A DNA stretch of 32,000 bases. Source: Clostridia bacterium. Lineage in GTDB: Bacteria; Bacillota; Clostridia; TANB77; RGIG9151. Where the stretch lies: the NCBI GenBank assembly GCA_017934955.1, contig JAGBIO010000003.1, positions 1-32,000 on the forward strand. Direction: 5' to 3'. The translations under genes were made by a program, and so were the position numbers. The notes below the pieces were generated by a model. The model worked only from the letters and a program-made list of their open reading frames with translations, was not told where the DNA came from and did not search any database. Of the stretch, positions 423-31,553 are shown piece after piece (positions within the stretch are counted from its first letter, which is position 1; every line of letters starts with the position of its first letter).

Positions 423-546
423 GACATTGAGTCAGACTTAGATTTATAAAAATAGCACAAACACTGTAGGAGCACCATGAATTGTGTTCCTACAGTGTTT
501 GTGCCGATATTTTTTGAAAGCTACAAGGTTATAGTCTGAATTGTAA
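423..546. repeat. Collapsed single-hairpin copy of the MITE-like element
   Basis: Arms tcagacttagatttataaaaatagcacaaacactgtagg and cctacagtgtttgtgc...atagtctgaattgtaac align to the arms of the full copies at 6703 and 19257. Only one degenerate hairpin (466-492) lies between them. Confidence 0.65.
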
Positions 547-553
547 CGTGTTT

Positions 554-1330
554 TTAATGAATATGATAGTGTAAATTTTGTGAGCTTTTTTGTTTGATTA
601 AGGCTTTGTAATATTTCATATCGTTACTGTTGTAGTGCATATATTCCAAATCTTTGATTAAACCGCTTGCGGTAAAGTAGTCTTTTTGCAGTATGGATAA
701 GTCAAGATTTAGTTTTTTTGAGTAGAGGTAGACATCCGGCAGTTCGAGGGCTGCGGAGATATAGGTAAGGAGTTTAGCTAAACCGGAGTTTACTTCTAAG
801 GAAAGTAGCGTATTATTGGAGGATAGCACTTTACATATATCTTTTAATGCTGCCGATAAATTATTCCTATAGATGTTTTTTAGAATACTCGGATAATTTA
901 AGATAATTTCGACGCTGTTTAAGTCGGATAAATAGATATTGTGGTGCATTACATCCATTAAGTAAGAATAGGATTCCGTATCTCTTTCGCAAATTAAGTA
1001 GGCGTCAAGCATTTTTTCAAATATCGAGGAATAAAAGTTGTTGACGCTGATTTTGGAAAAAGTTTTGGCTTTAATGTTTTTGGAAATGTAGCTTAGAATT
1101 TCTTGGGTAACCGGAGATATTTGAATTTTGTGCAAGAGAGAAATTCGTTGTCCCAAGCTAAGCGGAGTCGATGTAATTTCGTCGATATAGTCTGTCAGAA
1201 GCGCATACGCATTCTTATAAGCGGTATATTTATCTTTTAAAGATATACCGGAAGTATTTGCCGCTATTGTCATTTGATGAATGATTTCTAATTTTTTTTC
1301 ATAATCAAACAGTTTCATTTGTATCTCCAT
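554..1330 (-). CDS. Hypothetical protein, predicted all-helical, no family recognised
   Basis: 258-codon ORF with SD-like aaaggaaag upstream. A second in-frame ATG at 1318 is an alternative start. No motif recognised. Confidence 0.6.
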   Translation of the reverse strand: MEIQMKLFDYEKKLEIIHQMTIAANTSGISLKDKYTAYKNAYALLTDYIDEITSTPLSLGQRISLLHKIQISPVTQEILSYISKNIKAKTFSKISVNNFYSSIFEKMLDAYLICERDTESYSYLMDVMHHNIYLSDLNSVEIILNYPSILKNIYRNNLSAALKDICKVLSSNNTLLSLEVNSGLAKLLTYISAALELPDVYLYSKKLNLDLSILQKDYFTASGLIKDLEYMHYNSNDMKYYKALIKQKSSQNLHYHIH

Positions 1331-1421
1331 TTCTTTCCTTTGTTAGAAAAAGTCTTTTCAATAATATTATACTAATTTAAATGTTAAAGTAAAGGCTTGA
1401 CAATGCAAAAAAAATATAATT

Positions 1422-1590
1422 AGTTACAGGTCACAATATATCGGGACGTCGAGGACGCCGTCCCCTACAATGACGGTGCAATCATCGTAGGGACAGCATT
1501 CATGCTGTCCACAGAAAAGGCAGAAAAGAAGGACAGCATAAATGCTGTCCCTACAAGGATTATGTCATTATTATAGAAAGATATACCTTG
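1422..1590. mobile_element. MITE-like element with REPIN core plus extra GC-rich hairpin module
   Basis: Left end is gttacagg. The extra hairpin cgggacgtcgaggacgccgtcccctac lies at 1442-1468. The core is GTAGGGACAGCATTCATGCTGTCC - acagaaaaggcagaaaagaa - GGACAGCATAAATGCTGTCCCTAC (1487-1554). The right arm is degenerate and runs into the ytxC-like stop codon. Confidence 0.8.
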
Positions 1591-1595
1591 ATTCT

Positions 1596-6659: not shown

Positions 6660-6702
6660 GAGAAAACCGGACGTCATTTTTAACAAAGAAGATGCTAAAT
6701 TT

Positions 6703-6856
6703 GTTACTATTCAAACTTAAAATTATAAAAATGGCACAAATACTGTAGGGACAGCATTTATGCTGTCCACGGAAAAGGTAGAAAGTAGGACAGCATGAAT
6801 GCTGTCCCTACAATGGTTGTACCATTATTGTAGGCGATATAGTTTGATTAGTAACC
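6703..6856. mobile_element. Complete 154-bp MITE-like element with REPIN core, inserted in a terminator loop
   Basis: Ends gttactattcaaact / agtttgattagtaacc. Core hairpins at 6745-6768 and 6788-6811. Flanking direct repeats taaattt (6696-6702) and taatttt (6857-6863). Confidence 0.85.
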
Positions 6857-6877
6857 TAATTTTGAGCATCTTTTTTG

Positions 6878-7372: not shown

Positions 7373-7419
7373 TCTTATAGTTCAAGCTCAATTTCTTTAC
7401 AATGATGAAAATTAATGAA

Positions 7420-7547
7420 GGGGCGACTATTAGTCGCCCGATGTAGAATGTGTATTGGGCGATTAATAATCGCCCCTACGTCTTTGTTGTCGCACGAGAA
7501 AAAAATTATATAGTAACAATTATACCTTATTGAGTCTGAATTGTAAC
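7420..7547. repeat. REP-like doublet with GCGA stem variant, plus an element end fragment
   Basis: Hairpins ggggcgactattagtcgccc (7420-7439) and gggcgattaataatcgcccctac (7457-7479). The terminal motif gagtctgaattgtaac lies at 7532-7547. Confidence 0.6.
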
Positions 7548-11712: not shown

Positions 11713-13617
11713 ATGGGCAAAACGTATTTTAACGATGGAATTACGGGGAATGGAAAATTGCTTGTTTCTTTTACGGATAAAGGGGAAGCGAATCGTGTTT
11801 TTTGGCCGGTGCAAGATTATGCACAGCAGATGAATCATATTTGGATGGGTTTTAAATTTGACGATTCTGTGACGAAGTTTTTGCATGAGAATTTATGGTA
11901 TGTGGAACAGTTTTATGATGGAAAAAGTAATGTATTGGTGACGAGTTACGAGAATTCGGATTTTGGCTTGAAGATTCTGCAGAAGGATTTTGCATTAAAT
12001 GATAAGGATGTATGGGTTCGTCATTATGAGGTGACCAATATTTGCGATCGTGATCTGTATTTGAGGGCGTTTTTGCATACGGATTTTATAACGGCGGACC
12101 ATAATGTTCGCAGTGGAATGATGGATTTTTCTTCGAATTGTGCGGTAATTTATAATAAGGAGCATACGGTTGCAATCGGTTCGGGCGAGAAACTTGCCGG
12201 ATTTCAGTTTGGAAATGCGATGAATGCTGCGGTTAATGATTGTTTGTATGGAAAAGATGAGATTTCCATGACGTCGGATATGGCGTTAAAGTGGGAATTT
12301 GGTGTTTTGGCTCCGAAGAAAAAAGTAGAATTCAGTGTATTTTTCTGTTTCTCTTATGATTGCTCAGATGCAATTGCTTTATTCAATGAAACAAAAAACG
12401 AGAAGGGAAACTTTTTAATAGAGTGTGAGAAGAAGTATTGGGAAGAGGAGTTTCGGAAGTATAATAAATTTGTTACGGGAAATGAAAAGGTTGATGATGT
12501 GTATTTTAAGTCGATTTTGACTTTTAAACTTTTAACAAATGCGGATACCGGGGCGATTTTGGCGGCGGTGGAAGTGGATGAGAATTTTACGCGGTGCGGT
12601 CGCTATGGGTATTGCTGGCCACGTGACGGTGTGTTTATTACAAAAGCATTTGATTTGTGTGGAATGACAGAAGAGGCGGAGCGTTTTTATACGGTCTGGG
12701 CGAAAAAGGCACAGCTTGCAAATGGGGCATGGCAGCAGCGGTATTACTTGGATGGAAAGTTGGCTCCTTCATGGGGAATTCAAATTGATGAAATTGCGGC
12801 GATTATTTATGGGGCCTGGAGTCATTTTGAGCACACGAGAAAATTGAGCTTTTTGGAGGAAATTTGGAGTTCGATAAAGCCGGCAGCGTTGTATCTGATG
12901 AATCATATAGATGGAGAGACGGGGCTTCCGATGGCGTCTTATGATTTGTGGGAAGAGCGTTTTGGGGAGCATACTTATTCGGCGGCTTCTGTGGTGGCGG
13001 CGCTACGGTGTGCGGCGTTTATGGCGGAGGAGCTTAAAGTGGATATTCCGCTTGCAAATTTGTGGAAAAAGGAAGCGGATAAGATAAAGGAAAGCATTCT
13101 TCGTAATTTATGGAATGAGGATGAAAAGAAGTTTTTAAGAGGAATCAGAACGAGATTGAATTGGTGGAATTGTGAGACGGTTTCTCTTCCAACGAATGAA
13201 ATGGGCTATCGGATGGATGTTGCGGCTGTGGATAACATTGTGGATATTAGTTTATTGGGGCTGACCATTCCGTTTGATGTGTTTGCTGTGAAGGATGAGA
13301 AGATAAAGAGAACGGTTCGGGCGATTGAAGATCGATTAGATGGTTTCCCTGCCGGCGGATTCGGGAGATATGAGTATGATTCGTATATCGGTGGAAATCC
13401 TTGGGTTATTTCGACGCTGTGGTTGGGATTATATTATGCAGAAATCGGAGAAGTTGAGAAGTGTAAGGAGAAGCTGATGTGGGCGGTAAAAAATGCGACG
13501 AAGCTTGGATTTTTACCGGAGCAGGTGGACAAGTTTAATGGCGGACCTGCTTGGATTATGCAGCTTGCTTGGTCAAGCGCGATGTTTATTATTACGTTAT
13601 ATGCGTTAAAGAAATAA
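11713..13617 (+). CDS. Glycoside hydrolase family 15 (glucoamylase/glucodextranase/trehalase-like), cytoplasmic
   Basis: Motifs YGYCWPRDGVF and SYDLWEERFGEHTYS are typical of the GH15 (alpha/alpha)6 domain. I prefer the ATG at 11713 (GGAGG 8 nt upstream) over the track TTG at 11653. No signal peptide. Confidence 0.85.
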   Translation: MGKTYFNDGITGNGKLLVSFTDKGEANRVFWPVQDYAQQMNHIWMGFKFDDSVTKFLHENLWYVEQFYDGKSNVLVTSYENSDFGLKILQKDFALNDKDVWVRHYEVTNICDRDLYLRAFLHTDFITADHNVRSGMMDFSSNCAVIYNKEHTVAIGSGEKLAGFQFGNAMNAAVNDCLYGKDEISMTSDMALKWEFGVLAPKKKVEFSVFFCFSYDCSDAIALFNETKNEKGNFLIECEKKYWEEEFRKYNKFVTGNEKVDDVYFKSILTFKLLTNADTGAILAAVEVDENFTRCGRYGYCWPRDGVFITKAFDLCGMTEEAERFYTVWAKKAQLANGAWQQRYYLDGKLAPSWGIQIDEIAAIIYGAWSHFEHTRKLSFLEEIWSSIKPAALYLMNHIDGETGLPMASYDLWEERFGEHTYSAASVVAALRCAAFMAEELKVDIPLANLWKKEADKIKESILRNLWNEDEKKFLRGIRTRLNWWNCETVSLPTNEMGYRMDVAAVDNIVDISLLGLTIPFDVFAVKDEKIKRTVRAIEDRLDGFPAGGFGRYEYDSYIGGNPWVISTLWLGLYYAEIGEVEKCKEKLMWAVKNATKLGFLPEQVDKFNGGPAWIMQLAWSSAMFIITLYALKK

Positions 13618-13820
13618 GGGACAGCATGAATGCTGTCCGTACAGGAAGGAAGAAATGCGTTTGTAGGGACAGCATTTATGCTGTCCACAGAAAAGGCGGA
13701 AAAGCGGGACAGCATGAATGCTGTCCGTACAGGAAGGAAGAAATGCGTTTGTAGGGACAGCATTTATGCTGTCCACAGAAAAGGCGGAAAAGCAGGACAG
13801 CATGAAAGCTGTCCCTACAG
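13618..13820. repeat. Tandem array (about 2.3 x 88 bp) of REP hairpins filling the GH15-radA gap
   Basis: gggacagcatgaatgctgtccgtac recurs at 13618 and 13706 (and, with two substitutions, at 13794). gtagggacagcatttatgctgtcc recurs at 13662 and 13750. Five hairpins in total. Confidence 0.9.
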
Positions 13821-13856
13821 GAAGGAAGACTGTAAAATAAAACGAAGGAGGTTCTT

Positions 13857-15249: not shown

Positions 15250-15359
15250 GGGTTTGAAAAATAAAAAACAAATGGATAAAATTGCAGGATGCGTAAGAGG
15301 GAAGATTGATAAAATTGCACTGTGTGGCACTTATGGTGTCCATGAAAGGGATGATTTGG

Positions 15360-16421
15360 ATGAAGGACAAAGAAGTAATTGATATTTTACGTACGATTGC
15401 ACCGGGGACGGAGTTTCGTGAAGGATTGGAGAATGTATTAAAGGCGAAAACCGGTGGATTGATTGTGGTTGGAGATTCAAAAGAAGTTTTGGATTTAGTA
15501 GATGGCGGGTTTCAATTGGATCATGAGTATAGTCCTTCCTTGTTGTATGAACTGGCGAAAATGGATGGTGCGATTATTATCAGTCAAGATTTTAAGAAAA
15601 TTCTTTTTGCGAATGCCCAACTTTCTCCGGATCATTCGATTCCGACATCGGGAACCGGTACTCGTCATCGTACGGCAGAACAGTTTGCGAAGCAGACCGG
15701 CTGTTTGGTAATCAGTATTTCGCAGAGAAGAAATATTATTACGTTGTTTAAGGGAAATTTGAGCTATGTATTGCCGGATACTTCTGTTGTTTTGACGCGT
15801 GCCAATCAGGCGATGCAGACGCTTGAAAAGTATAAAACGTCGTTAGATGGCGTGATGAATAATTTGAATGCGTTAGAGTTTGAGGATATGGTGACGTTGG
15901 AAAATGTGTGTACGGCGATTTTGCGTACGGCGACAGTTCTTAAGATTTCAGAGGAAGTGGAACGCTATATCTATGAACTCGGAGATGAAAGTCGCTTGGT
16001 GGAAATGCAGCTTGCTGAGCTTTTGGGTACGACGAAAGAGGATTTGGATTTGTTGATTAAGGATTATATGGAAACGTCAAAGAGAAGTAGTGCAGATGCG
16101 ATTAGCAATAAGATAAAGAATTTGAATTATGGGGAACTTACCGACGCATCGGACGTTGCGAAGTTGCTTGGCTTTAATGCGTCAGCGCAGATTGATATGC
16201 TTTTGCCAAGTAAGGGATACCGGATTTTGTCGATGATTCCGCGTTTACCGAGCAATATTATTGAAAATTTAATTGAGAAATTTAAGAATTTGAGCGGTGT
16301 GATTGATGCAAGTATCGAGGAACTGGATGAAGTTGAGGGAATCGGAGAGGTGAGAGCGAGATATATCAGTAACGGGTTGAAGCGAATGAGAGAGCAGACG
16401 TTGTTTGATATAAGATTTTAA
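15360..16421 (+). CDS. disA: DNA integrity scanning protein DisA (diadenylate cyclase)
   Basis: DAC-domain motifs MDGAIIIS (DGA) and GTGTRHRTAEQ (RHR). C-terminal helix-hairpin-helix EGIGEVRARYI. I prefer the ATG at 15360 (MKDKEVIDIL...). The track start at 15306 adds 18 residues not typical of the family. Confidence 0.9.
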   Translation: MKDKEVIDILRTIAPGTEFREGLENVLKAKTGGLIVVGDSKEVLDLVDGGFQLDHEYSPSLLYELAKMDGAIIISQDFKKILFANAQLSPDHSIPTSGTGTRHRTAEQFAKQTGCLVISISQRRNIITLFKGNLSYVLPDTSVVLTRANQAMQTLEKYKTSLDGVMNNLNALEFEDMVTLENVCTAILRTATVLKISEEVERYIYELGDESRLVEMQLAELLGTTKEDLDLLIKDYMETSKRSSADAISNKIKNLNYGELTDASDVAKLLGFNASAQIDMLLPSKGYRILSMIPRLPSNIIENLIEKFKNLSGVIDASIEELDEVEGIGEVRARYISNGLKRMREQTLFDIRF

Positions 16422-19229: not shown

Positions 19230-19256
19230 AAATAACAATGACGCAAGTCTTTATTA

Positions 19257-19410
19257 GTTACTATTTAGACTATATCTCTTAAAATAATGGTACAATCTTT
19301 GTAGGGACAGCATTTATGCTGTCCGCAGAAAAGGCGAAAAGCAGGACAGCATAAATGCTGTCCCTACAGTGTTTGTGCTATTTTTATAATTTTAAGTCTG
19401 AATGGTAACC
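19257..19410. mobile_element. Complete 154-bp MITE-like element with REPIN core
   Basis: Ends gttactatttagact / agtctgaatggtaacc. Core 19301-19366. Flanking direct repeats tttatta (19250-19256) and tttattt (19411-19417). Confidence 0.85.
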
Positions 19411-19428
19411 TTTATTTTGTAATGTTTT

Positions 19429-20415
19429 TTACACGCCTTCACCGGGCATGAAGAGTTCTTGAAATTTACGGATGGCGTAATGGTCAGTCATCCCGGCGAT
19501 GTAGTCGCAGATGACACGATGTTGCCCGCAACGTAACAGCATGTTTTTGAATTCTTCCGGTAATTCTAATGTGTTTTCTAAAAAGTAGTAATAAAGCCAT
19601 TTTATGACAGACCCGGCTTTCACTTCTTCTGTTTTGGCACGGGAGGCAAGATAGACTTTGTCAAACATAAATTCTCTTAAATCCCACATGGCTTTATAGA
19701 TTTCATCTGACATTGAGATGATATTTTTATCTTTAGAATGTTCAATAATATCGAGGACCATGGAGTTGATGCGTTCGCTTGACGTCGCCCCTAAAAGTTT
19801 AACGCAATGTTCCGGTAAATCGCTATCATGAATAAGTCCTGCTCGTTTTGCATCGTCAATGTCGTGATTGACATAGGCGATTCGGTCGGCAAACTTGACG
19901 ATTTGTCCTTCTAAAGTTTTCGCCATATTTGCTCCGCTGTGGTTGATAATCCCGTCTCTGGTTTCCCAAGTTAAATTTAGGTTTTCCAAGACGTCTACGA
20001 CTCTTAGACTTTGTTCGTTATGCTTAAAGCCTTCGTCGTAAAGTTCGTCAAGGATTTTTTCTCCGATGTGTCCGAAAGGCGTGTGTCCTAAGTCATGCCC
20101 AAGTGAAATTGCTTCGGTTAAATCTTCGTTTAGGTGTAGCGCACGAGCGACGGTTCTTGCGATTTGAGATACTTCAAGTGTGTGCGTGAGTCGTGTACGA
20201 TAGTGATCTCCCTCCGGTGCGATGAACACCTGCGTTTTATGTTTTAAACGTCGAAAGGCTTTTGAGTAAATGATTCTGTCCTTATCTCGCTGAAATTCCG
20301 TGCGGATATCACATTTTTCTTCGGGGAGCAATCTGCCTTTTGTTTCGGCACTTTTTGCAGCAAATGGAGAAAGAGTCTGTTTTTCAAATTCTTCTTGTTC
20401 TTCGCGTAATGTCAA
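19429..20415 (-). CDS. dGTPase-like HD-domain triphosphohydrolase
   Basis: HD motifs [17 protein letters not shown] and [14 protein letters not shown] start with SD aaggaggg 7 nt upstream. Confidence 0.85.
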
Positions 20416-20444
20416 GTGAAATCCCTCCTTTGTTATAGATGTTT

Positions 20445-20603
20445 GTTACAGTTCAGATTGAAATTTTGTATCTAAAAATATTGTCGGAATGTGGCTTGTA
20501 GGGACACAATTCATTGTGTCCTAATTCCAATGTCAGGTTATTTTGTGGACACAATAAATTGTGTCCCTACAGGGTTTGTGCTGACTCTATAAATTGAATC
20601 TAA
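20445..20603. repeat. MITE-like element, ACACAA stem subfamily, right end degenerate
   Basis: Left end gttacagttcagattg. Hairpins gtagggacacaattcattgtgtcc (20498-20521) and ggacacaataaattgtgtccctac (20547-20570) are separated by a 25-nt spacer. Confidence 0.75.
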
Positions 20604-20638
20604 TCTATAAGATATTTTATCATATCTATATTAAAAAC

Positions 20639-27835: not shown

Positions 27836-28107
27836 TTATTGTATAGGTCAGAATTAAATTTATAGAAATAGCATAAATAGTGTAGGAACAGCATTTATGC
27901 CGTCCACAGAAAAGGCAGAAAGCAGGACAGCATTGCGGACGTAACACCGTGAGTGTAACGAACGGCTTGTACGTCCTATACAAAGAAACTCCAAGAACGT
28001 AGTGATTGGGAAGTTTCGACTGTTAATGCTGTCCCTACAATGGTTGTACCATTATTGTAGGAGATATAGAACAGTAACAAAAACTGAAGATTTTGCCTAT
28101 ACAACAA
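27836..28107. repeat. Composite: family-2 hairpin interrupted by a MITE/REPIN copy that itself carries a 90-bp nested insert
   Basis: ttattgtatagg (27836-27847) | MITE 27848-28078 | aaaaactgaagattttgcctatacaacaa (28079-28107). The second REP hairpin is split at 27933/28024. Confidence 0.8.
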
Positions 28108-29022: not shown

Positions 29023-29078
29023 GGACAGCATAAATGCTGTCCCTACGAAGTTCTATACAGACAGCATTTATGCTGTCC
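29023..29078. repeat. REP hairpin pair in the LtaS-like/UbiA intergenic gap
   Basis: ggacagcataaatgctgtccctac (29023-29046) and gacagcatttatgctgtc (29060-29077). The pair ends 4 nt from the upstream gene stop. Confidence 0.85.
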
Positions 29079-29082
29079 GATT

Positions 29083-30998: not shown

Positions 30999-31116
30999 GT
31001 TACAATTCAGAATCTAATTTATAGAGGAAGCACAAACGCTGTAGGGACACAATTCATTGTGTCCCCAAAATAGGCAGATGCTTAGAATTAGGACACAATG
31101 AATTGTGTCCCTACAA
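30999..31116. repeat. MITE-like element, ACACAA stem subfamily, right arm truncated
   Basis: Left end gttacaattcagaatc. Hairpins at 31041-31064 and 31091-31114. The spacer is the diverged reverse complement of the one at 20522-20546. Confidence 0.75.
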
Positions 31117-31140
31117 TAGATTGAGAAACATTTAATGTAC

Positions 31141-31270: not shown

Positions 31271-31342
31271 GTGCTAGCTTTTTTATGATACTACAAGTTA
31301 AGATTTTTTTCAAGAGATAAATTGAAATTTGTGTTGGAAAAT

Positions 31343-31536
31343 GTTACAGGTTAGACTCAAAATTGTCTCAAATATATCGGAACGTTGGGGACGCCGTCCC
31401 CTACAATGTTTGTACAGGTATTGTAGGGACAGCATTTATGCTGTCCTGCTTTTCTGCCTTTTCTGTGGACAGCATGAATGCTGTCCCTACAATGATTGTG
31501 CCATCATTGCAGAAAAATGTAGTATGAATAGTAACC
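31343..31536. mobile_element. Complete 194-bp MITE-like element with extra GC-rich hairpin module and inverted core
   Basis: Ends gttacaggttagact / tatgaatagtaacc. Extra module at 31378-31404. Core at 31421-31490 with spacer tgcttttctgccttttctgt. Flanked by a perfect direct repeat ggaaaat (31336-31342 and 31537-31543). Confidence 0.85.
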
Positions 31537-31553
31537 GGAAAATGTTACACACA

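Follow-up and report, generated by a model that had tools for sequence, protein, structure and literature searches.

The 32-kb stretch of DNA analysed here (the window) has a G+C content of 38% and derives from a Clostridia-like Firmicute. The ORFs examined all encode housekeeping functions (YtxC, glycosyltransferases, RadA, DisA, CarD, dGTPase, DnaG, RpoD, YceG, UbiA and a sulfatase), and the RNA genes are those of tRNA-Asn, tRNA-Ser and 5S rRNA. RadA is 73-93% identical to the nearest proteins of uncultured Clostridia MAGs, and an 812-aa sugar nucleotidyltransferase is ~47% identical to named Acetivibrio and Herbivorax proteins. Contigs of relatives, fetched via RadA, the 812-aa protein and the dGTPase, share 90-94% protein identity and ~80% DNA identity with the window. 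Scanned against Rfam 15 at the gathering score, the window returns only the 5S rRNA and the two tRNAs, and the intergenic repeat family that is the subject of this analysis has no match. No transposase gene is detected among the ORFs examined, in accord with the first-pass annotation, which had reported the window to be free of an autonomous partner for the repeats. A 254-aa ORF between two of the repeat copies (c4 and c5) was considered as a candidate transposase and rejected: it has no Pfam, NCBIfam or PDB match, its 80% ortholog in a relative (L145) lies in another context, adjoining the 812-aa gene, and a protein of the same length in a second relative (L143) is unrelated.

The family comprises nine copies (c1 to c9) of 125-239 nt that hold no ORF. 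Three of these (c1 to c3) had been placed by the first-pass annotation and are found where it put them. The c1 (6703..6855) and c2 (19257..19409) copies are full-length; they had been described as 154-bp elements that end in GTAACC, and while the feature is the same, the element is 153 nt and the final C is the first base of the right flanking repeat. In c1, arm A, a REP doublet and arm B follow one another between GTTAC and GTAAC, with the REPs at 6745-6768 (GTAG plus hairpin) and 6788-6811 (hairpin plus CTAC), and the whole forms a single long hairpin (DNA -39.3 kcal/mol, z = -10.8). The c2 copy is inverted relative to c1, with arm B on the left, arm A on the right and REPs at 19301-19324 and 19344-19367. 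The full-length element is asymmetric, as arm A (..TTAAAATTATAAAAATRGCACAAAYAC) and arm B (..TATATCKCYTAMAATAATGGTACAAYCWT) are alike over just the first ~15 nt and one short internal block. The c3 copy (31343..31535) is a long form of 193 nt in which the left arm, starting GTTACAGG, is followed by an extra REP of a second type (GGGGACGCCGTCCCCTAC, ~31387-31404), the REP pair (GTAG-REP at 31423-31446, REP-CTAC at 31467-31490) and arm B. The c5 copy (1423..1595) is a long form with the same left end, and its degenerate right end abuts the YtxC stop codon. The remaining copies are more divergent or incomplete: (i) c4 (423..547) is a shell with a single collapsed hairpin between GTAG and CTAC, (ii) c6 (20445..20609) belongs to a GGACACAAT hairpin subfamily and has a GTTAC left end and a degenerate right end with a boundary at 20605-20611, (iii) c7 (7374..7547) carries a third hairpin type, GGGCGA..TCGCCC, twice, between a left end of CTTATAG and a right end of GTTACAATTCAGACT (reverse complement), (iv) c8 (30999..31120) retains the left arm and a GGACACAAT REP doublet and is missing the right arm, and (v) c9 (27840..28078) has a degenerate left end, TGTAT, and a GTAAC right end. 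The c9 copy also holds a unique insertion of ~95 nt (27934-28028), positioned precisely within the loop of the right-hand REP hairpin, that forms a hairpin of its own (GGACGTA...TACGTCC) and has no second copy in the window or the collected loci. REPs outside any shell include a BIME-like cluster at 13611..13846, in which an 88-bp tandem repeat (two units, 13611-13786) is followed by further REP units, and those at 347, 15226, 17086, 17146 and 29023-29079.

The basic unit of the core is GTAG followed by GGACAGCAT(nnn)ATGCTGTCC, and 21 such hairpins occur in the 32 kb, most of them tagged by GTAG or CTAC. They are arranged as singlets, inverted doublets and the 88-bp tandem array of 13611-13846. 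GTAG thus lies 5' of an imperfect palindrome of 20-40 nt in many copies and two REPs stand in inverted orientation, as in REPs and REPINs; the regularly spaced REPs of alternating orientation that typify a BIME are seen at 13611-13846 only and not in the full-length copies. Variant hairpins (GGACACAAT/ATTGTGTCC, GGACACCAT/ATGGTGTCC and GGGCGA../..TCGCCC at 7420-7480) keep a GGAC...GTCC foot, and both sides of the stem change together. Doublets are present in c1, c2, c3, c5, c6, c8 and c9, always with hairpins of matched type, and nine doublets or derivatives are enclosed in a longer shell. The hairpin type differs by copy (GGACAGCAT in c1-c3, GGACACAAT in c6 and c8, GGGCGA in c7), the arm subtype co-varies with it, the position of the REPs inside the shell is constant, and the 32-kb window has no REP-free shell. 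Thus, the shell together with the REP pair has been copied, and not the REP alone, since the hairpins are type-matched, the arm subtype co-varies and no shell is REP-free. The shell-less REPs and the tandem array show that the hairpins are also subject to independent dynamics.

The ends of the shell are sharply defined. The terminal motif GTTACWATTCAGACT occurs 11 times in the window at up to three mismatches, compared to 1.4 expected. When 16 arms are aligned, 12 start exactly at GTTAC, and at all 12 the homology stops there and the DNA outside is unrelated. The two termini of a copy are identical at 14/15 positions in c1, 13/15 in c2 and 10/15 in c3. Thus, the terminal inverted repeats (TIRs) noted in the first-pass annotation are real.

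Direct repeats flank the three copies that had been described as bounded by 7-bp repeats. The repeats stand, and their length is corrected to 8 bp, directly abutting GTTAC...GTAAC with 7 of 8 positions matched in each copy: CTAAATTT (6695..6702) and CTAATTTT (6856-6863) for c1, CTTTATTA (19249..19256) and CTTTATTT (19410-19417) for c2, and TGGAAAAT (31335..31342) and CGGAAAAT (31536-31543) for c3. A match of at least 7/8 has a chance of 0.0013 per copy for random intergenic 8-mers of the window. The match is specific to k=8, and at k=6, 7, 9 and 10 the register is lost and with it the agreement; the match is also confined to a copy's own pair, as cross-pairings give 2-6, and in c2 it is direct and not inverted. 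Each of these putative target site duplications (TSDs) is imperfect and the informative copies of the window number four, c6 being the fourth; the degenerate copies score 4/8 (c4), 5/8 (c7) and 0/8 (c9). The c1 repeat is the weakest of the three, since it lies in the loop and stem of a terminator and is AT-palindromic. It is part of the terminator hairpin AAGAUGCU...AGCAUCUU, which precedes a U-run and is extended by the whole element, with the left repeat in the loop of the stem AAGATGCT..AGCATCTTTTTT; as the repeat also pairs within this stem, it may be a by-product of the terminator. The c3 repeat runs on into GTTACA, which accounts for the 13-nt extension that the first-pass annotation had flagged as blurring this boundary. 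Direct repeats of 12-13 nt occur in both c3 (31336-31348 / 31537-31549) and c6 (20433-20444 / 20606-20617), and each takes in the terminal hexamer of the copy itself (GTTACA in c3, CTTATA in c6).

For c6, an insertion is documented. The promoter/RBS region of the dGTPase gene is conserved in the relatives L152 and L150/L151 (two species, three contigs), and in the alignment a 173-nt block that contains c6 is absent from the orthologous upstream region of all three contigs. The target AAATATCTTATA is single in L152 and L150/L151 and present twice in the window, once on each side of the c6 block; L152 reads ...AAAATATCTTATACAAAGGAGGG once, and the corresponding sequences on the two sides of the element in the window are AAAATATCTTATAG and AAACATCTATAACAAAGGAGGG. 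The best in-register 8-mers of the plus strand, AGATGTTT (20437-20444) and AGATATTT (20610-20617), match at 7/8 with the right end set at 20609, and the duplication is 6-13 nt depending on the placement of the degenerate right end. Thus, c6 is an insertion with target duplication, as the block is missing in relatives and a single target is doubled in the window. The empty site in a related strain that had been named earlier as the means of confirming such an insertion is therefore available at this one locus. The hexamer CTTATA is also found once in the L152 empty site and was, hence, present in the target beforehand.

Other copies are less accessible to this comparison. For c1, c2 and c5, no empty site is recovered from the relatives, in which the genes are rearranged and the DNA between them, at ~80% nucleotide identity, cannot be aligned; the c3 site is covered by none of the relatives, and in Logan contigs of the same strain (L002, L093-L095, L153) the sites are occupied by these insertions and not empty. 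A remnant of a shell end lies upstream of an acyltransferase gene in L143, at the junction occupied by c7; therefore, other insertions predate the species split. The shell-less REP of the GH15-RadA junction is likewise old, as it is also found, degenerate, in L143. At this junction L143 (4190-4260) has one degenerate REP (GGATAGCTTGAATGCTGTCCGTAC) compared to the 88-bp tandem array of the window between GH15 and radA; thus, the array expanded in the lineage of the window. Element copies coincide with synteny breakpoints of the window (423-1595 and 19257-20609) relative to L145, L150 and L152. The dGTPase gene, which lies between c2 and c6, is inverted relative to L150/L151 and not relative to L152. 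Recombination between c2 and c6 was considered for this inversion and rejected, because c2 keeps its matched TSD and L152 has the orientation of the window without c6.

With its sharp ends, TIRs, 8-bp duplications, c6 insertion, REP core and co-varying hairpins and arms, the family is best read as a non-autonomous MITE-like TIR/TSD element that carries a RAYT-type REP pair and is mobilised in trans, probably by a DDE transposase, through 8-bp staggered cuts; we place the probability of this reading at roughly 0.65. The copies have the properties of a MITE, being less than 300 bp, non-coding, bounded by TIRs and flanked by a duplication of fixed length (8 bp, 7/8 in c1-c3 and c6, only at k=8). 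By contrast, an IS200/IS605-type (HUH Y1) element would lack TIRs and duplications and insert on the 3' side of a fixed short motif, whereas TIRs and 8-bp duplications are present here. The earlier expectation that HUH/RAYT mobilisation would not leave such flanks agrees with the documented absence of both TIRs and TSDs in IS200/IS605-type transposition (PMC2817692). The suggestion that the flanks reflect DDE mobilisation is supported in so far as the TIRs, the TSDs and the c6 insertion are concerned; the DDE class itself is kept as a probable attribution, since no partner transposase was found.

In the proposed mechanism, the shell TIRs of ~15 bp (GTTACWATTCAGACT) would be recognised in trans by a transposase that cuts AT-rich intergenic targets with an 8-bp stagger; this enzyme is most likely of the DDE type, and its gene would lie elsewhere in the genome. 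The cargo would be a GTAG-tagged REP pair, equivalent to a RAYT (HUH Y1) unit that lacks the gene and consists of the two hairpin ends, and the shell and the REP pair would be copied as one unit. The REP pair may have entered a master shell copy once per lineage, with RAYT-type insertion into the single-stranded tip of an extruded palindrome as a plausible route. The shell-less REPs and the 88-bp array would reflect separate RAYT- or recombination-driven dynamics of the same hairpins. Searches for the shell beyond the window returned no partner: it is absent from all 90 genome loci that carry the REP 22-mer among the matches listed, the 47 matches of a shell-plus-REP pattern in JGI metagenomes are all by chance, and a plasmid blastn search with c1 yielded nothing. 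This lack of a matching transposase counts against the reading, as do the small number of informative copies in the window, the imperfect TSDs and the possible terminator origin of the c1 repeat. A plain 8-bp staggered cut also does not predict a terminal hexamer inside the c3 and c6 repeats, an overlap that may reflect a preference for targets beside terminus-like sequence. In addition, the interior is base-conserved across phyla while the TIRs differ; the opposite pattern would be expected if the TIRs alone mattered.

The conserved interior is apparent from the distribution of the REP 22-mer GTAGGGACAGCATnnATGCTGTCC, for which a search of genome contigs gave 90 loci (L003-L092) among the matches listed. 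The exact 22-mer occurs, among those matches, in Chloroflexota/Anaerolineae, Bacteroidota and high-GC rumen Clostridiales MAGs, and the MAGs with the identical 22-nt REP range in G+C from 38% to 67%. A base-identical REP across phyla is unusual for REPs. The usual layout among the matches listed is hp1(GGACGCCAT..ATGGCGTCC)-CTAC, ~27 nt and GTAG-hp2, an arrangement to which the left part of both c3 and c5 conforms. A search for REP-flanked ORFs identified one of 172 aa in a Muribaculum MAG (L072; 2084-2602, plus strand) that lies exactly between hp1-CTAC repeats, which form an array of ~58-nt period, and GTAG-hp2. The ORF has an HUH motif (mpnHfHaiv), the segment WQsRYYDHaIRg...tYIrnN and a catalytic-Tyr motif; among PDB entries it is closest to E. 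coli TnpA-REP (4ER8, E=0.0076), its score against NCBIfam NF047646 'REP-associated tyrosine transposase' is 30.7 bits, where the curated cutoff is 80, and Pfam gives no match. These sub-threshold scores, weak but coherent, suggest a RAYT-like Y1 transposase. As this ORF sits between hp1-CTAC and GTAG-hp2, the REP core would represent the two ends of a RAYT-type unit. The first-pass description of a MITE shell with a REPIN-like core is upheld in this respect, the core being a GTAG-tagged REP doublet and the same REP flanking the RAYT-like gene. A strict Y..NP motif search for RAYTs in all collected loci returned nothing real.

Similarly to the window, other genomes carry the REP pair inside shells with defined ends. 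In the Chloroflexota MAG PMV_1.47, and in one copy of the Anaerolineae MAG C2.bin.11, the pair resides in a different shell of 135-158 nt (GGTRGTGGTAACGCTTTGACTGAT...ATCAGTCAATATGTCACCACTACC), which has a TIR of GGTAGTGGTAAC... and an 8-bp TSD in PMV_1.47. Ten complete copies give 59/80 matched positions between their flanking 8-mers, versus 28% for mismatched pairings, only at k=8 (permutation p<1e-5), as exemplified by TAATAAAT/TAATAAAT and CTGTTGCC/CTGTTGTC. In the Anaerolineae MAG SRP287051_co1_160, the pair is enclosed in a third shell of 132-138 nt (TGGACAAGGCAATTAG...TTAATTGATTTGTCCA, ending ...TTGTCCA) that is flanked by perfect TNA 3-bp repeats at 7/7 copies (L013, L016, L042, L046, L051, L058, L069). 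The TNA 3-bp repeat is the TSD type of IS5/Harbinger-like elements, and a partner resembling IS5/IS1031 would be expected for this shell. An apparent 1.2-kb pair of the TIRs of this shell in L042 lies inside a coding gene and was rejected as a chance match. A fourth shell, CAGTAAATCACAGATT...AATCGTGATTCACTG, surrounds the REP pair in the AMOR20 Anaerolineae MAG (L011, L012, L024, L086, L088). With one core in shells of differing TIRs and TSD lengths, the shells are probably moved by differing transposases of the ordinary TSD-making kind, and the duplications are probably not the work of an enzyme of the core itself.

This distribution invites a further reading, in which the REP pair is not a passive cargo but a portable module that repeatedly teams with unrelated TSD-making shells, a recurrent symbiosis of two transposon classes that spreads REPs within and between genomes. 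The proposal is tentative, and we hold it to be doubtful. It may take one of two forms: RAYT-type insertion may target the single-stranded tip of extruded MITE palindromes, or the hairpins may be needed in cis for movement of the shell.

An alternative is that the shells represent an older palindromic family, of MITEs or of targets, and that REP pairs inserted into each copy independently, such that the chimera is not a replicating unit. This corresponds to the 'target palindrome' view of Di Nocera et al. 2013 (PMC3733652), in which some REP dimers lie regularly inside a longer conserved palindrome that is never found without the REP, as for GTAG-15 of A. variabilis and CGTC-1 of H. neapolitanus. 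It would accommodate the three hairpin types carried by the shells of the window, and a hairpin loop is a plausible single-stranded DNA target. Independent colonisation is nonetheless unlikely: a REP-free shell is found neither in the 32-kb window nor in ~280 kb of Chloroflexota loci among the matches listed, the two hairpins of a copy are always of the same type with an arm subtype to match, and the REPs keep one position in the shell.

It is quite unlikely that the whole 153-nt unit is instead an extended REPIN moved by the RAYT of the genome, in the single-strand HUH Y1 manner, with GTTAC as its cleavage or target motif and the flanking repeats as a target preference or an undescribed RAYT feature. 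TTAC serves as a cleavage or target motif in IS608, and the core is a bona fide GTAG REP pair whose identical REP flanks the RAYT-like gene of L072. The hairpins rather than the TIRs are conserved across phyla, and the c3 and c6 targets already had the terminal hexamer (GTTACA; CTTATA in L152), which recalls a fixed target motif. However, the termini are ~42 nt from GTAG, beyond the cleavage offsets known for IS608. The occurrence of the same core in shells with 8-bp and 3-bp TNA duplications is not expected from one enzyme family. Moreover, Y1 transposition leaves no duplication (PMC2817692), yet unrelated 8-mers are duplicated at each copy.

Least of all do the data fit immobile terminator or regulatory hairpins that spread by recombination or template switching and are flanked by microhomology scars: c1 does extend a terminator stem with its U-run, copies do lie between genes and at synteny breakpoints, and the direct repeats do look variable in length (8 to 13 nt), but sharp, identical ends at 12 termini with unrelated flanks, a fixed 8-nt register in three window copies and ten Chloroflexota copies, the clean insertion of c6 relative to two species and the absence of an Rfam family match render this highly improbable.

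The MITE-like TIR/TSD element with a REP cargo, as favoured here, combines two known kinds, MITE and REPIN, and is not a new category. It shares with bacterial MITEs (Correia/NEMIS, RUP, bcr1 and Nezha; PMC3733652) a length of 125-240 nt, the lack of coding capacity, TIRs, short target duplications, an intergenic location often near terminators, the folding into one long hairpin and the presence of multiple diverged copies. Unlike in these MITEs, the interior is no random remnant of an IS but a GTAG REP pair base-identical to that of other phyla, its conservation contrasts with the lineage-specific TIRs, and no cognate IS is found in the window. It shares with REPINs and the REP-RAYT systems of the GTAG superfamily (PMC3116915, PMC2817692, PMC3733652) the GTAG 5' of an imperfect palindrome, the inverted pair separated by a short spacer, the co-occurrence of singlets and BIME-like arrays in one genome, compensatory changes in the stem and a REP that flanks a RAYT-like gene (L072). 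It differs from them in the TIRs ~42 nt outside the REPs, the 8-bp target duplications and the Clostridia-like Firmicute host; GTAG REPs were noted in Proteobacteria, Cyanobacteria, Chloroflexi and the PVC group, and not in Firmicutes, in a 2013 survey (PMC3733652), and Clostridia are known to possess Group 1 RAYTs (PMC5581495). The nearest precedent is the REP dimer within a longer palindrome, including the 'TIRtrons' (PMC3733652). The flanks were not analysed in that study, whereas defined ends, TSDs (8 bp or TNA) and a documented empty site are found here. Within the full-text library searched for REP/RAYT in combination with MITE or TSD, TSD-flanked REP-pair elements are not described. A further relation is to the miniature elements derived from IS200/IS605, which insert 3' of TTAC-like motifs as in the IS608 paradigm. 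Similarly to these, the family has subterminal hairpins, a TTAC-containing terminus and, in c3 and c6, a target with the terminal hexamer; by contrast, it has a target duplication, the motif stands at both ends, in inverted orientation, and the termini are far from the hairpins.

The association of a GTAG REP pair with a TIR/TSD element, a pair that occurs across three phyla in no fewer than three unrelated shells and with two types of TSD, bears on how REPs spread. If general, it would provide a testable route by which REP hairpins hitch-hike on cut-and-paste miniature transposons, and would account for the REP dimers embedded in long palindromes, hitherto puzzling. In the current view, a single-copy RAYT moves REPs and REPINs, very rarely and without target duplication, and their inheritance is vertical within a lineage; the portable-module reading, if true, would argue against the view of REPINs as strictly vertical and TSD-free. 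The finding also adds a Clostridia lineage to the range of GTAG REPs. Annotators should be aware that intergenic repeats rich in REPs may represent chimeric MITEs, whose defined ends are markers of insertion polymorphism and of breaks in synteny.

Related repeats are also noted in the relatives. Singlet REPs of a sister type, in which GGTCAGCATGAATGCTGACC is followed by GTAC and not CTAC, are found in L143 (4192, 8424), L145 (962, 6156, 6487) and L150 (2560, 8907), and at 6460 in L145 a sister-type REP is preceded by TTATTATTCAGACT, which resembles a shell terminus. A more distant relative, L144 (GCA_964316295.1), has an unrelated near-perfect palindrome of ~200 nt (15280-15480) with a CCTACAGCGTAGG centre, located downstream of a beta-propeller gene, and a similar GGAAAGC..CTAC..GTAGG motif after carD (13090-13200). 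Palindrome and motif represent another GTAG-containing repeat family.
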